A DNA stretch of 64,000 nucleotides from Perna viridis (taxonomy: Eukaryota), in the NCBI GenBank assembly GCA_037379345.1, contig CM074512.1, forward strand, positions 63,323,597 through 63,387,596, given 5' to 3'. A model generated the notes under the pieces. That model saw only the letters and a list, made by a program, of their open reading frames with translations. It ran no database searches and was not told the DNA's origin. Each line of letters starts with the position of its first letter. Position 1 is the stretch's first letter. Of the stretch, positions 1,229 to 60,011 are shown piece after piece. The translations under genes and the position numbers were made by a program.

Positions 1229-2754
1229 ATGGTGTTAACATTGAAGTTGCTTTCATACATGTGGACGTGGGGATAAAAGCAAAATAAGTACATGGACCTC
1301 TACTCCGATGAAAAGATATTGTTTGCTTATTTGGTAAGTTTTAGTAGTATTAGACGTTCCTCTGATGACACATGGATTTCTAGAGACATATCAACTCAGA
1401 TAGAAATAGGATTTTCGAGTTTCCTATATTTAGACGCACAAATTCGACTCTCCAAATTATTGTATGTTACATGTATAAACGTCTCAAATTACGTACATGT
1501 GTACCATTCGAAAGCTTCTTCTACTATATCTGTACAAAACATTTTTTCTTGTTTTCATAGAGAATTAACAAAATCAATTAACTTAATGTTCTGCTTATGT
1601 CAAAATCTAGGACATTAATTGTCTAGATTATTTAAGTCAAGATATTAAGAATGCAAACTGAAAACTTTGCTTCAAGCTTCATCGTGCAGTATTCCACATA
1701 CATTTATGATTCCTTACATCACAAAATATGTTACGGTACAAAGCCATATTTTGCTAACAACAGAAGTGTAAACAATAAATTTTAAAATAAATATACAAGA
1801 CTAGATGTTTGTTTGCATATGTGCTGTAGCCTTAATATCTAGTGTATAGCAAGTTACATATGTAGCAATAACTTGCGACAAAAATTGTCAAATCTGAATG
1901 AACTTGATAAAATTTTATGCTTATTGGTATTTAGCTGGATCATGGCATAAAATATCTTAATTCATCTAAATTTCTTGAAATGGCATTGTTATCAAGAAAA
2001 TTAATGCTAGCTTACACTTCATGATGCATTCAGGAACAAAATATAAATTTCTGACTTCAAATCTTGTTTTTCGCAACCATAGATTTTTTTTTCTAAAATA
2101 TGTTTTTTTTCAATTTTGTTGTGAATGTTTTATAGAAGTTACAAAACATTTGTTTAAGTTAGACTTGTTCTTGCGTGTTAAATACAGTCATATAAAATGT
2201 GTTTAGAAATGCTTCAGTCCTAATTTTAATGTGTTATTAAAACTATGAACGAAAACATTTCTTTAAGGAATGTCCTTGATATTGGCTTTATCAGAACCTT
2301 AACACAATTAAGCAGGTCTCAGCATTACTGTAAACGCTCATTCACCTACATCAACACTTAAAACTCACTTTTTGGGTGTATATAATTAAGGCAACGATAT
2401 TTTCAGCATGTCTGTAAAATTCAGCCCCTTTTTTTTCTTTTTCAGCGGATTACAATTGTAATAAAAACGTAAAAAGTAGAAATTTGAGAATTACCGATTT
2501 TCTTCAATTTCTTCACCCGCTATTGTCAATACGGTACTTTAAGTACATGTACCATAGTACGAATAAATATTACTTAACAATCGATTTTTTTTTTCAGATA
2601 AGCATAGGAAAAATATTTAAGCTATTCAAACTGCATTTAGGGAAAGAACTGCTATCCATACCCCTAAACTATCATTGTGTTGCACAATTTGCCTGACACT
2701 TATAATTAGATGTAGCTTGGCATTGTTACAATGTAACAAGAACAAACATACAAG

Positions 2755-3112
2755 TAAAAACGAGTCAGATTCGGACCCCTTACAGATGAGATAAAAGCTT
2801 GGTGTCAGACTACTATAATGTATAAATGGGTCGGATACGGACCCCTTACAGATGAAATATAAGCTTGGGGTAAGGTTGCTACAAAGTATAAACGAGTCAG
2901 ATACTGACCCCTTACAGATGAAATATGAACTTGGTGTCAGGTTACTACAAAGTAAAAACTTGTCAGATACGGACCCCTTACAGATGAAATATAAGCTGGG
3001 TGTCGGGTTACTACAATTTATAAACGGGTCGGATACGGACCCCCTTATAGATGAAACATAAGCTTGGTGTGAGGTTACTACAATATATATAAACGAGTCA
3101 GATACTGACCCT
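2755..3112. repeat. ~60-bp minisatellite, ~6 units
   Basis: Repeated AAACGAGTCAGATACGGACCCCTTACAGATGAAATATAAGCTTGGTGTCAGGTTACTACAA. Confidence 0.95.
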
Positions 3113-4755
3113 TCACTCCTAAATATGACATTTCTGTTTGTTTTCTATCAGTTAATTCATGTTTGTTTAGTGTCTTGTCTTGTCTTTTTGTTTGTTTTTG
3201 TTTGTTGTTAAGTGTCTTCCGCGGATTATCGATATCTAGTTCGTTTCTCGTTCTTATTGGGATTTATTTGCTTTTAGTTCCTTAACAATGGCTCATAAGT
3301 CTTCGAGCTAAATGACATCACAACAACTGTGACACCAGTGTGAGTTGTTTACAAAACATAAATAACAGGAAGTGAATACAGCTGGCTTACTGTACACTTC
3401 AGTGTTTTTCTCAGATTAATGTAGAGTATGCACTGTGTTGTAGTGCAAACATAGTATTAATATAATCACTCAATCACTTAGATTTTCACTTTCTAACAAA
3501 TACGGCACTTACAGGTTTCGAACGCCATCATTCAAACTGTTAAATGTACAACTTCACTGATCATCAATTGTACGATATACAGTCTGGGTAATATGTACAT
3601 ATACAACCAAGAAAACTTGCTTCTTACTGAAATGCAGTTGTCTACATACAAAAAAATATCTGTAAGTATTTCCTTTACTCTTGAACGCAAAACTGCAATT
3701 ATTCACAATTTCCTTTCTCTTACCTTTGTGTTCAATTCTCCTTAATATGTCCAAATATAGATTGCTTCGTAATCTCTATTATCTTGGTATGAAGTGAACA
3801 CAGCAGATAACTTCAATTTCAAGGTAACTAAGATATGTGTATTCACCATCATATCGGAAAGGACATTCCTATATCTGAATTTCTTTTCGCTTGATAACGA
3901 TTTTCATTAATACAAGTACAATCGCAGTTTTTTAAACCAGGCTATAAATGGGTAAGCAGGTAAAGAAAGTTCTAGACCGATTTGGGGGAAGGTATGGGGG
4001 CAGGGCCATCTCCACTAAACTGCGAAAAATATAACAATCTTTTGGCCTCCAATTAATCTTGAGAAACACACACAATAGTATTGTTTCTGCTTGCACTGGT
4101 AAAAAATAATACTAGTTCGGCGAAATTTAATTGCATGTTTGTAATCACCGTCACAACGTTTTAGACCAGCTGATAACGCCCCGGTTAATTGATTAATGTG
4201 GGAGCTTACGGATATACCCCTATCTTAATTCAAAATAGATATAAATATAAAATCTAAGTGAATTACACAAGCAAATAAGTAATCTTAAAAAATGGATTTT
4301 ATCAAGTAATAAATGAAAGATTGAAAATGCACTGAAAGTCGCCCGTGTAAACAAGTTGAGCCGATTTGTGAAACATTTTTTTTTTGTAACTACATACAGA
4401 TTTTCATATAACCTGTGTTCATAGGAGATAGAAATTATATAGAATGTACTGTAGAAGACAAAATTAAGGGAGATAATTCTTTCTCCCAGTCATAGGCTTC
4501 ATTCACACCGCACGAGCGAGTAATTTCCTGCCACGTGCCGGGAAATTAAAATGTCACATGAAGACTCCCACGCTTACCATGTTTGCATTTGTTATTCATA
4601 TAATAATTGTTGATCAATTAAATAGTTGTTGATTTACGAATGTTATTCATATTTTGAAAGATTAGTTGGTAGTGTATCAACTAATTAAATCATAATGGTA
4701 GTGATATCGATGACGCAATGACTTGATGACTGGAGGGGAGGTCCTTGATGACGTA

Positions 4756-7765: not shown

Positions 7766-8210
7766 GAATACAAGGGAATCAAGCGGGACGACGCCAAAAC
7801 CTACCTGCTCGCCATCATCAATGGGAAGATCGTCAGGGTCAAGCATGACCCTCCGACCTGGCTCCGGGACTACTATGGGGGATGAGGCAGATCATGGAGG
7901 AAGTGATCAAGCTGAATCCTGACCTGCTCGCCTGCGAATCCAAGGAGAAGAGGGGGACGGACTACAATATCGAGGGGACAACCGTGAATTACGTCATGTG
8001 CTCCCTGGAAAATAAGGCTCTGATGGCGGCCTTCGACTACCTGACCGAGCAGGAGATCGAGGTGGGGGCGCTCGTATTCGATGGGCTCATGATTCATAAG
8101 AAGGGGGTTCCACGCACCAGGCTGCCCGAGATTCTCCAAGGCTGCTCTCAGAGGGTGAAGGAGGTCGTCGGGGCTGATATCATCTTCACGGTCAAGGAGA
8201 TGGATGAAGG
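7766..8210 (+). pseudogene. C-terminal fragment of a family-A-like (TVpol-type) polymerase/primase domain
   Basis: KRDDAKTYLLAIING resembles motif B. A frameshift at the G-run near 7876-7881 leads into ...CSLENKALMAAFDYLTEQEIEVGALVFDGLMI, which resembles motif C (E...hhFDG). The 5' part is lost at the element's left break. Confidence 0.6.
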
Positions 8211-9884
8211 GGACCACTCAGATCTGCTGCTACGCAAAGGCGTCTACCCCTACGACTATATGGATAGGTTCGAGAGGCTCCAGGAGACCCAGCTCCCATC
8301 CAAGGAGGCCTTCCGCAGCACGCTCAGAGGGTCTGGGGGGCCTTTGGATGCAAGACCATGCGCGACTATCACGATCTCTATCTCGAGACTGACGTGATCT
8401 TGCTCGCCGACGTCTTCTAGAATTTCCGCGAGATCTGTATGAAGCATTATGGACTCGACCCTGCGCACTACTATACGGCGCCAGGGCTATCATACGACGC
8501 CGCGCTCAAGGTCAGCGGTATCAAGCTGGATCTCATCACCGTCCCCGATATGCTGCTCATGGTCGAGAAGGGGATTCGCGGGGGTCTGACCATGGCGTCT
8601 CAGAGATACGCTCGGGCGAATAATCCCTACCTGCAAGATTTCGACCCGAGCAAGCCGACCAACTATCTGATGTATCTGGACGCTAATAATCTCTACGGGT
8701 GGGCGATGAGTCGGCCCCTGCCCACCGGAGATTTCAAGTGGATCGATCCCTCAGAAGTCCCAGACCTCAGCACGCTCGGTGAGGAGTATGAGCAAGGATA
8801 TATCATGGAGGCGGATCTCGAATATCCCAGGGAGCTCCACGATCGCCATAACGACTATCCCCTCGCGCCGGAATCCATGGTGATCAATGGAGTCAGGAAG
8901 CTGGTGGCCAACCTCCACGATAAGCAGAAATACGTGGTCCACTACGTAAATCTGAAGAAATACCTTGCCTGGGGTCTGAAGCTGAAGAAGATCCATCGCA
9001 CCATCCGATTCACCCAGAGCCCATGGTTGAAGGGGTACGTAGAGAAGAATACGGGTTGCAGGGCGGCGGCTACCACCACCTTCGAGAAGGACTTCTTCAA
9101 GCTCATGGTGAACTCAGTATTCGGAAAGACCATGGAGAATATCCGCAATAGGGTGGACGTCCGGCTGGTCAATAGCGAGAAGGCTGCCCGGAAGCTGGTG
9201 GCCAAGCCTAGCTTCAAGCGCAGGACGGTCTTCAGCGAAGATCTGGCTGCCGTCCATCTGCATCGCACCAAGCTGGTCTTCGATAAACCCATCTACCTAG
9301 GATTCTCCATCCTTGATCTATCAAAGACCCTGATGGCCGACTTCGTCTACGACCATCTCAAGTCCCGGTATGACGACCGACTCAGCATCTGCTTTACGGA
9401 TACGGATAGCTTGATCTGCGATATCCAGACGGCGGACGTATATAAGGATATGGCGGAGAATGTGCAGGAGTGCTTCGATACGTCCAACTATGCCCCAGAC
9501 CATGCCTCCGGGATTCAGCCCGGCGTGAATAAGAAGGTGATAGGCAAATTCAAGGATGAGTGCGCCGGCCAGCCGATGATCGAGTACGTGGGACTCCGAC
9601 CGAAAGCATATGCCTTCAAGGTGGATCGCGAGGAGTGCAAGAGGGCTAAGGGCGTGAAGAAGAGCGTGGTCGAGACCAATCTGACCTTCGCCGACTATAA
9701 GGAGTGCCTGGACACGGGCAGGGAGAAATACTGCGCGATGAATATCATCCGTAGCCGGCTCCACCAGGTCCTTACCCTAGAGACCTGCAAGAAATCCCTC
9801 TACTCCAATGACGATAAGCGCCACATCCTGCCCGACGGCATCAGCACCCTCGCCCATGGTCACTACCAAATCGTCCACGACTAA
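8211..9884 (+). pseudogene. polB: Protein-primed family B DNA polymerase (pPolB), N-terminally deleted
   Basis: Motifs [71 protein letters not shown]. Out-of-frame deletion at ~8318-8326 and in-frame TAG at 8418-8420. The ORF 8439-9884 is open. Confidence 0.95.
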
Positions 9885-9981
9885 GGCATCGATCCACCCC
9901 CACCCTCTCCCACACCAGAATTTCTCGAGGTTCGTAAGCCTCGGGAAATCTTCTCGCTTCGCCGCCCCCACCCCCATCTAT

Positions 9982-10113
9982 ACTTAGCAGGCTCTGATGG
10001 GTGCGGATGCCCATCCCTCCTCTTCAGCACTTGGTAGGCTCTGACGGGTGCGGATGCCCATCCCACCTCTTTGGCACTTGGTAGGCTCTGACGGGTGTGG
10101 ATGCCCATCCCTC
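9982..10113. repeat. 47-bp tandem repeat, ~3 units, intergenic in the viral element
   Basis: Units start at 9982, 10029 and 10076 (ACTTGGTAGGCTCTGACGGGTGCGGATGCCCATCCC...). An inverted single copy lies at 15026-15056. Confidence 0.95.
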
Positions 10114-10122
10114 CCTAGATAA

Positions 10123-10539
10123 ATGGATAAGCCCCTCACCAATCTCGAGCTCGAGCGAGCCGTGAAGAATCTGCATATCCCGCACTTCAGAGGCGTCTTC
10201 ATGCGCGACGATCTGCAGTCGCTGAAGAAGCTGGAGGCCGCTTACGATAAGCTGAAGGCGAAAGTCGTCAACTTGCAGGAGGAGATGCGGCGCATGAAGA
10301 CCGTCGAGAAGGACGATATCACAGCTCTCAGGGGGAGGCTGGACCAAAAAGTGGATAGATCGGATTGCAGCTGCACGAATGGTGGTCAGATGAACGTTGA
10401 TCTCGATATGCAGAAATACCGCATAAAAAATCTCCCACTTCCCCAGAGCGATAATGAGCCCGTCACCAAAGCCCTATACGATCAGCTGGTGAAGGATATC
10501 TACGATGTGAGAGTCTTAGTGCAGATGCATCATCCCTGA
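10123..10539 (+). pseudogene. Chimeric ORF: N-terminus of adenain-like maturation protease fused to a coiled-coil/fibre-like repeat protein
   Basis: MDKPLTNLELERAVKNLHIPHFRGVFMRDDL matches the start of Polinton cysteine proteases, but the catalytic His/Cys region is absent. The remainder is a coiled coil plus GGQMNVDLDMQKYRIKNLPLPQSDNEPVTKALYD, like the 'DMxxxRIxNLxxPxxxxDAxTKxYVD' fibre-type repeat. Confidence 0.65.
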
Positions 10540-10548
10540 GTGCCCCCT

Positions 10549-10593
10549 TATCTGCCTTTTCGGATGCCCCGAGAGCATCCGAAAAGCCATGAT
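10549..10593. terminator. Repeated hairpin motif, copy 1, between convergent viral genes
   Basis: Perfect 12-bp stem CTTTTCGGATGC/GCATCCGAAAAG (10556-10586). Near-identical copy at 12492-12535. Terminator function is inferred from position only. Confidence 0.5.
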
Positions 10594-10973
10594 TATTCCC
10601 AGTCGGATTGCTTCACCCATGAGTTGAAAGATTTAGGGTAGCCCATCCACTTCACGAATATTGCCTTGACCCCATTCTTGGTGCGTCGCCGCAGAACCTT
10701 CTCAATGCGATAAACGTCCTGATCGGTGCTCTGGAGCTCGGGCTCGTAGAAGAATCCCTGGATCTCCTCTTCGTTGAAATCCTTGAGGCGATAGGTCGGC
10801 GGCTGAGTGCCCAGGACCTGCGAGATGGGGAGGACTTCCTCTTTCCAGCGGGGCGTATACCTCCTTTCGAAGATGCCCTTCTTCTTGGCGATCCGGACCC
10901 TATCTCCAGGCTTGAATCGCGGCGGCTGCATGGGTGGGAGGTCTCCGTATAGATTTTTGACGCAGTAGATCAT
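10593..10973 (-). pseudogene. C-terminal part of Polinton retroviral-type integrase (SH3-like region + chromodomain); DDE core missing
   Basis: PRFKPGDRVRI..KKGIFERRYTPRWKEEV...PPTYRLKD...EEIQGFFYEPELQ, then the chromodomain YRIEKVLRRR...FVKWMGYPKSFNSWV. Confidence 0.9.
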
Positions 10974-10988
10974 ACTTTATCTATATAA
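10974..10988. promoter_or_regulatory. 15-bp AT-rich divergent promoter/initiator between integrase-side and ATPase ORFs
   Basis: CAT-ACTTTATCTATATAA-ATG. Reads TATATAAATG on + and TATATAGATAAAGTATG on -. Confidence 0.5.
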
Positions 10989-11733
10989 ATGGACGTGCAC
11001 GATATCTCTTACGATGCCGCCGCACCCACCAGGAGCAATCACTACCTCCTCCCCCAGCGATCGATTCGCGGTCTGATCGTCGGGAAGTCGGGCTGCGGCA
11101 AGACCACGCTGCTGAATAACCTCCTCTTGCGCTCTGGATGGCTAGACTACGATCGCCTCTCTGCTTCGGGAAGTCTCTGCATCAGCCATCTACCAACTCT
11201 TGCGAGCGGCTCTGGAGAAGGGTCTGACCAAAGAGGCCATCCGGGAGCTTCTCACCCTGCAGGACGCATATCTCCTGCTAGACCTCGTCGAGGATCTTCC
11301 CCGAGGGCCGGGTGGGATCGATGCCGCCTTCTTCGAGCAGGACGGAGACCAGACCCCCGCGAGCTCGATCCGACGGATAAGAATCTGATGGTCTTCGACG
11401 ATTTGATGCTGAGCAAGCAAAATAAGTGCGAGGATTACTACGTGCGCAGGCGCCATAATAATGTCGATTGCTTCTACCTCTGCCAGAGCTACTTCAAGCT
11501 TCCGCGGCAGACCATCCAGGAGAATGCCAACTTCATCTGCCTCTTCGCCAAGACGATCGAAATCTCGATCATATCCATCGCGACTACTGCACGGATCAAT
11601 CGCTCGACCAATTCAAGACCCTCTGCCGCCGATGCTGGTCTGAGCCTCACGGCTTTGTGACCATCGATCTGACCAGCCCGAGAAGCCGGAAGATATCGGT
11701 TCAAACTAGATGAATTCTTCGATCCGGATAAAT
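10989..11733 (+). pseudogene. A32/FtsK-like genome packaging ATPase, about 5 frameshifts
   Basis: Walker A GKSGCGKT, Walker B LMVFDD, and RHNNVDCFYLCQSYFKLPRQTI.ENANFICLF. The pieces continue in alternate frames (FGKSLHQP; YQLLRAALEKGL; QDDRNLDHIHRDYC...WSEPHGFVTIDLT; GRYRFKLDEFF). Confidence 0.92.
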
Positions 11734-11734
11734 A

Positions 11735-36061: not shown

Positions 36062-60011
<23,950 letters not shown>

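Follow-up and report, generated by a model that had tools for sequence, protein, structure and literature searches.

A minimal family-A polymerase domain is nested within a protein-primed family-B polymerase (pPolB) of an animal Polinton, giving a single polypeptide with two polymerase cores. Specifically, sequence comparison places a TVpol domain of ~310 aa, inserted in frame, in the exonuclease loop of a complete pPolB whose N-terminal part is kept. This nested architecture is natural and recurrent. The copy in the window (by which we mean the whole 64-kb stretch of Perna viridis DNA that was analyzed) is a dead remnant of such a two-core polymerase gene, and intact carriers were found among database proteins.

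Window copy, genomic copies and intact carriers

The Polinton copy in the window is decayed and truncated at its 5' side (Table 1). The left half and the left terminal inverted repeat (TIR) are absent from the window, and the left half of three sister copies had no match elsewhere in the 64 kb, which places the truncation within the TVpol domain. Only the C-terminal half of this domain is retained (150 of 318 aa covered), and motif A is absent. An earlier note on this DNA had described an ORF of 171 aa at 7882-8397 with two unrelated halves, and its elements were all located: the ORF itself, KRDDAK, IING, FDGL, and KEMDEG/DHSDLL. The stop-to-stop ORF spans 7849-8397 and has 182 aa, the count of 171 starting from the Met at 7882. 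Motif B (KRDDAK at 7781-7798, with RxxxK at 7784-7798) and the hhNG motif (IING at 7814-7825) lie upstream, both in the same frame, which differs from that of the ORF. Within the ORF, KEMDEG (8194-8211) leads directly into DHSDLL (8212) and then RKGVYP (8233), and the pPolB that follows has an in-frame stop at 8418-8420. The closest named relatives of the window protein are from Mytilus.

Table 1. Features of the Polinton copy in the window, and further embedding sites of the domain in other pPolBs
Feature	Position	Strand	Remarks
Decayed 5'-truncated Polinton copy	7769..17483	.	GC ~0.55 vs flanks ~0.33; 82-96% identity in blocks to other copies in the genome
Inserted TVpol domain remnant, fingers region	7769..7882	+	corresponds to P0002 residues 916-953; ends at frameshift near 7881
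C-terminal part of inserted TVpol domain	7882..8211	+	motif C FDGL at 8077-8088; 6-nt deletion near 7927 vs other copies
3' junction of insert	8205..8215	+	36-nt in-frame linker deletion ~8208 vs copies C9, C5a, C4
pPolB exonuclease domain resumes (LLRKGVYPY)	8212..8331	+	frame broken by 40-nt deletion near 8317-8321
pPolB Exo III (8379-8396) and polymerase domain	8319..9884	+	90% identity to P0002 1127-1644
Putative protease ORF start	10123..10214	+	remainder deleted in window, kept in other copies
Integrase C-terminal remnant with chromodomain	10593..10976	-	PF00385, E 1e-5
A32-like packaging ATPase, frameshifted	10989..11660	+	PF04665, E 8e-7
Double jelly-roll capsid, in pieces	13745..14956	+	PF21738, E 1.6e-12 and 5e-11
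Right terminal inverted repeat	17328..17482	.	matches left ends of other copies, inverted
Further embedding site	downstream of motif C in another pPolB type		P0011, P0089, full-length P0457
Further embedding site	between vOTU-like region and exonuclease		P0032, P0194
Further embedding site	inside VSR-type-looking domain		P0418

Fuller copies were retrieved from the same genome. A DNA search with a 565-base query gave 26 matches, with six other loci covering nearly the whole query in one piece, and a protein search gave 32 matches that represent 15 carrier loci. Of the 12 close copies, 10 have the pPolB Exo II region directly upstream of the TVpol domain (of the other two, one is the window copy and one carries an internal deletion), and pPolB sequence is also found upstream of the domain in all three divergent loci. 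One natural frame of 481 aa in copy C10a spans both junctions and includes motif A. The junctions have no conserved splice-type residues. The abrupt switch from EMDEG to DHSDLL had been taken as the point at which the two halves meet. The in-frame join of TVpol to pPolB is indeed present and recurs in the fuller copies, but the exact abutment is peculiar to the window copy, which alone has the 36-nt deletion relative to the three copies aligned across the junction; none of these three has the EMDEG/DHSD junction, and no helicase lies between the halves. The 1.86 kb that separate the halves in copy C8 were considered as the missing kilobases between TVpol and pPolB and ruled out, as they are an AT-rich element of ~1.8 kb with terminal inverted repeats (L028 ~1330-3130), which sits a few bases past the 3' junction of the PolA domain.

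A search of longer proteins gave 78 matches, the best of which are full-length pPolBs with pPolB on both sides of the domain. Intact database carriers span 1.4-1.6 kaa and match at 92% in the domain for P0002 (1644 aa) and at 52-59% for P0003, P0005, P0006, and P0012-P0014. When P0002 was aligned with P0198, a pPolB with an empty site, two blocks matched, residues 23-758 (51%) ahead of the domain and 1077-1644 (64%) beyond it, leaving 318 extra residues at a single glycine. The insertion point falls between Exo II (667) and Exo III (1147) of P0002. Motifs Exo I-III and Pol A-C are all kept in P0002, P0003, and the other full-length carriers, and the N-terminal region, a candidate terminal-protein and vOTU region, also has a putative Cys...His pair. 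An Endonuclease_7 domain (Pfam) was detected in a carrier pPolB. In 34 proteins that have the domain between both pPolB anchors, many of them near-copies, the loop measures 343-358 aa (409 in two, which contain an additional cysteine-rich piece), as against an anchor distance of 30-49 aa in 107 of the 111 anchor-bearing empty relatives. The four outliers were explained by a mis-hit anchor in three and by a cysteine-rich piece in one.

A cysteine-rich, zinc-finger-like piece of ~50 aa was observed in the same exonuclease loop, together with the PolA domain in P0003 and P0160 and without it in P0268 (Nematostella), so this loop accepts more than one kind of insert. The carrier fragment P0004 is annotated as coming from a bacterial MAG (Candidatus Thiodiazotropha) and is probably mis-binned animal or viral DNA. 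As for environmental data, pPolB was found near the domain in none of 80 IMG/VR loci, and beside the domain in 5 of 80 short contigs of a metagenome scan.

These copies and carriers bear directly on how the join had been explained, namely by a deletion that welded a TVpol-helicase gene to pPolB, or by a primase-like domain that replaced the terminal-protein region. The window copy on its own does look like this, because it is truncated within the domain and has lost the linker at the junction. However, pPolB lies on both sides of the domain in fuller copies, with Exo II or other pPolB sequence upstream as counted above, and the six regions tested contained no match to the helicase part of P0020. 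Likewise, the N-terminal part is whole in intact carriers, with the alignment of P0002 to the empty P0198 running through the very region that was supposed to have been replaced. Both weld and replacement are refuted by these data. The earlier suggestion of a natural fusion fared better, in that the join is in frame and recurs in genomic copies and database proteins, but it is an internal insertion and not an N-terminal fusion. Instead of an ancestor with two separate replication systems, as had been proposed, we find one polypeptide with two polymerase cores.

Fold, conservation and recurrence of the inserted domain

Pfam and PHROGs profiles gave no polymerase match for the insert, and alignment A1, searched against PDB sequences, matched only in helicase columns contributed by free relatives. 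At the protein level, window positions 7885-8205 share 51% identity with a free-standing PolA-helicase protein (E 6e-30). A model of the domain was built from an 84-row alignment, with the complete domain taken from an uninterrupted natural copy, and was predicted with a pLDDT of 93. The top Foldseek matches in the PDB were Pol I fragments (E 3e-7), and VIA-align gave a Z of 15.8 against Klenow (rmsd 4.1, 276 aligned), followed by Pol theta (14.7), T7 DNA polymerase (12.9), yeast mitochondrial RNA polymerase (10.4), and T7 RNA polymerase (9.7). Among viral models, the best fold match was the replication protein of the Zamilon virophage (E 1.7e-20, TM 0.75). Identity, Klenow, and Zamilon matches uphold, well above chance level, the PolA-fold and TVpol reading of the earlier note, which had proposed this structure search. 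The PolA match covers residues 2-308 of 318, and no room is left beside it for a HINT fold or an endonuclease domain. The whole-protein model of P0013 reached a mean pLDDT of 56, with low confidence everywhere but in the insert and parts of the exonuclease, and a fold search with it again returned PolA matches and no pPolB match. On the domain model, the insert is predicted to be a TVpol, that is, a minimal family-A-fold polymerase domain.

The residues expected of an active site are conserved. The motif A aspartates D114 and D116 and the motif C aspartate D262 are kept in 32 of the 32 embedded copies checked, as is K165 of motif B, with R161 in 30 of the 32; many of these copies are near-copies, and the pPolB Exo and Pol motifs are also kept in the full-length ones. 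A near-invariant G86-R87 lies between predicted strands 74-81 and 88-90, its arginine is present in 31 of 32 carriers, and from its position we infer that it is the hairpin arginine described in passages of PMC2579912. The fold, the hairpin arginine, the palm aspartates, and RxxxK, by which TV-Pols are defined in those passages, are thus all found in the insert. TV-Pols are also described there as helicase-linked and never fused to nuclease domains, whereas the insert here is flanked by pPolB on both sides and sits within a 3'-5' exonuclease domain. The domain is therefore a TV-Pol, but the protein is not a TVpol-helicase replicase.

Variants shared by the 12 genomic copies (i.e., present in two or more, with multi-base codon changes counted apart) had a pN/pS of 0.08 in the insert (72 synonymous, 21 nonsynonymous), 0.08 in the pPolB C-terminus (62 synonymous, 17 nonsynonymous), and 0.04 in the upstream exonuclease, and singleton variants ranged from 0.28 to 0.38. 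These ratios show purifying selection on the insert equal to that on the pPolB core, although part of it could stem from constraint on the folding of the host protein. A search of sequencing runs for the sequence listed no RNA dataset among those that contain it. Three RNA datasets from a related organism, sampled at 19-25% each, yielded 3, 4, and 29 matching reads. In the deepest run most of the insert coverage came from one strand, 5' junction bin included. Depth reached 4.75 in the 5' junction bin and was under 1 at the 3' junction, and no RNA joint was seen among the 36 reads, which lend weak support to unspliced transcription of the two-core gene.

Free relatives of the domain are the N-terminal domains of UL9-like S2H proteins (39-48%) and of S3H proteins (25-39%). 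In total, 3653 representatives match the domain at E 0.001 or better, and an in-frame S3H or S2H match lies nearby in at least 129 of 160 public loci of free relatives. By similarity, the nearest free relatives are PolA-S2H (UL9-like) replicases. The carriers were scattered in a quick tree of 37 pPolB C-termini. In a careful tree (LG+G4, 10 redundant, short, or long-branch rows dropped), for which the empty rows had been chosen by likeness to the window pPolB and which is blind to gain versus loss, four changes between carrier and empty states were needed, three of them forced by starred branches. Carrier P0003 was sister to the empty P0282 (100/99), and a single clade of carriers was rejected (AU p 1.9e-6). 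The domain was absent from all 119 new nearest relatives of the pPolB. A second Polinton family of the same genome has an empty-site pPolB, with at least 20 whole matches across the site among the 98 listed, and no invasion by the domain was seen in the loci examined. Region-by-region identities gave no clear co-conversion tract beside the insertion site.

The domain was also found embedded in pPolBs at three further sites (Table 1), for which the VSR and vOTU labels of the host regions are putative and based on motifs, with no Pfam match there. The domains at sites 1 and 2 are sisters (95/96), as are those at sites 3 and 4 (97/98), and their host pPolBs differ. The domain tree placed all four among PolA-S2H proteins, and a second tree agreed on sites 1 and 2. 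A single origin of all four pPolB-embedded sites was not rejected by the AU test (p 0.27). The presence of the same domain at four sites shows that embedding in pPolB recurred: there were at least four entries into pPolB loops, which trace to one or two domain lineages. A related PolA domain was observed inside the PIF1-like helicase part of P0070 (1626 aa), which looks like a pPolB-S1H replicase.

Possible roles of the nested domain

We give about an even chance to the proposal that the domain is a primase-polymerase that, tethered to pPolB, initiates or re-initiates DNA synthesis on its behalf. The source of the TVpol domain would have been a PolA-S2H (UL9-like) replicase, whose helicase was left behind in the capture. 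The helicase of the donor would make the single-stranded template, a role that would here be taken by the strand-displacing pPolB (passages of PMC11161782 describe a role of TPR2 in strand displacement by pPolB). The PolA domain would then make primers on the displaced strand, or prime anew behind stalled forks, and starts might be possible where no terminal-protein-capped end exists. The priming role is proposed from the predicted role of the donor on single-stranded DNA, and repeated entry into pPolBs without a helicase, together with an active site under strong selection, points to use in cis. Since most close pPolBs are without it, the insert would be an optional accessory that recombination between co-resident Polintons adds or removes. 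TV-Pols are predicted prim-pols in passages of PMC2579912. Passages of PMC7581432 place CCPol in this group, as the only TV-Pol characterised, and describe it as an active polymerase that primes with dNTPs when bound to MP and does not prime alone, without this single-strand-binding partner. Against priming, a protein-primed polymerase whose N-terminal part is retained would seem to need no primase, and the domain is dispensable, with at least 20 whole empty-site matches in the genome versus 15 carrier loci and with none of the 119 new nearest pPolB relatives carrying it. With somewhat under an even chance, a TVpol lineage may have specialised as a partner of pPolB and inserted itself repeatedly, the family-A core priming and the family-B core elongating and proofreading. 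Were this so, animal Polintons would have primer-independent or coupled lagging-strand replication alongside protein priming, and the nested form would preserve an intermediate step in the exchange of pPolB for PolA-helicase replicases or vice versa.

The same conservation of catalytic residues and the same pN/pS would also be expected if the domain were catalytically active without priming, an accessory polymerase that extends existing 3' ends and serves pPolB as a tethered, built-in switch partner in the bypass of lesions, the filling of gaps, or the repair of ends at excision or integration. The closeness of Pol theta to Pol I as second structural match fits this reading, as does the fact that the domain comes without an exonuclease of its own, like repair-type family-A enzymes. 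CCPol without MP only extends primers, according to passages of PMC7581432. Yet the free relatives are almost always fused to helicases, a context from which passages of PMC2579912 predict priming, and we judge a repair polymerase to be unlikely. An RNA polymerase of the single-subunit type (T7 or mitochondrial), transcribing viral genes or making RNA primers, would account for the matches to the yeast mitochondrial and T7 enzymes, but DNA polymerases score above these (Z 13-16), the domain is far shorter than those RNA polymerases, and CCPol prefers dNTPs in passages of PMC7581432, all of which makes this highly improbable.

The insert might, on the other hand, be a selfish in-frame passenger that occupies tolerant loops in the manner of inteins and homing endonucleases and spreads by gene conversion or homing, through its own synthesis or through the endonuclease domain of its host. 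The scatter of carriers over the pPolB tree (four changes, and the rejection of a single clade) would be expected of such an element, as would the four sites in different pPolBs and the one inside a PIF1-like helicase. Moreover, pPolBs are known to collect endonuclease domains (passages of 10.1101/2023.08.22.554363 and PMC11161782), and a homing-like role has been proposed for PolA/AEP genes (passages of 10.64898/2026.10.13.758929). However, the insert appears to have no room for a nuclease or intein fold, the co-resident empty family is uninvaded in the loci examined, and selection acts as strongly on the insert as on pPolB in a family whose copies all have it, so a passenger seems a rather doubtful explanation.

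A primase built into pPolB would alter the simple protein-priming picture of Polinton replication, and the nested form is a plausible intermediate in a swap of the pPolB module for a PolA-helicase module. Priming by TV-Pols has been predicted since 2008, and one distant member has been assayed; a compact domain of 310 aa with a confident model is directly testable. A self-priming, strand-displacing, and proofreading enzyme would also be of interest for DNA amplification. To our knowledge, no other single polypeptide has apparently intact cores of both family-A and family-B polymerases.

The recurrent replicase architecture is made of known parts and is apparently undescribed. The TV-Pol/PolA-S3H and PolA-S2H replicases of virophages and Polinton-like viruses share the minimal family-A core, the hairpin arginine, the two palm aspartates, and RxxxK; theirs is fused to a helicase, whereas here the domain has no helicase and is nested in another polymerase, in an animal Polinton with integrase and capsid. 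Polinton/Maverick pPolBs with an HNH or VSR endonuclease insert, described in passages of 10.1101/2023.08.22.554363 and PMC11161782, have the same Exo I-III, Pol A-C, Endonuclease_7, and tolerance of insertions, but their insert is a nuclease and not a second polymerase of another family. The CCPol-MP pair of SCCmec (passages of PMC7581432) likewise includes a family-A polymerase of a mobile element, the only TV-Pol member tested biochemically; CCPol is a protein of its own that primes only with an OB-fold partner and works with a separate helicase, in contrast to the domain embedded in pPolB. Shuffling of replicase domains is also seen in Tlr1-like pPolB-S1H and OmPLV S1H-pPolB (passages of PMC12721341), but as end-to-end helicase fusions, and the multi-replicase genomes of polisuviruses (passages of 10.64898/2026.10.13.758929) encode PolA and pPolB in one genome, but as separate genes that are not nested. 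In titles, abstract openings, and passages of the literature (figures, bioRxiv supplements, Repbase, and subscription papers lying outside this scope), we found no description of a PolA inside a pPolB. Specifically, the nesting does not appear in passages of PMC11161782 (with one supplement), PMC12721341, PMC8502044, PMC13215967, PMC11131425, PMC7581432, 10.1101/2023.08.22.554363, 10.1101/2022.12.02.518924, 10.64898/2026.06.19.733378, and 10.64898/2026.10.13.758929, which cover PolA-S3H and PolA-S2H fusions, endonuclease inserts of pPolB, helicase-pPolB fusions, and separate PolA and pPolB genes.

The surrounding Polinton

The hallmarks of Polintons/Mavericks are present, i.e., pPolB, integrase, A32 ATPase, double jelly-roll capsid, and TIRs, with the integrase core taken from sister copies. 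This core is deleted in the window copy and kept in copies C8 and C4. Internal deletions at 10214/10215 and 10955/10956 removed most of the protease, the integrase core, and one further ORF, all of which the sisters keep. The ORF that begins at 10123 is presumably a protease, judging by its motifs.

Outside the polymerase gene, minus-strand fragments at 18068-21900 resemble, by their motifs, a LINE reverse transcriptase gene. A run of 136 Ns lies at 47750-47885, far from the polymerase gene. A repeat of 510 bp occurs at 18760-19275 and 28145-28654, and copy C4 has it as an insertion within its capsid gene region. Finally, three 47-nt tandem copies follow the pPolB gene at 9982-10122, and one inverted copy was found at 15024-15063, upstream of the ORF at 15082; this repeat is possibly a regulatory motif.
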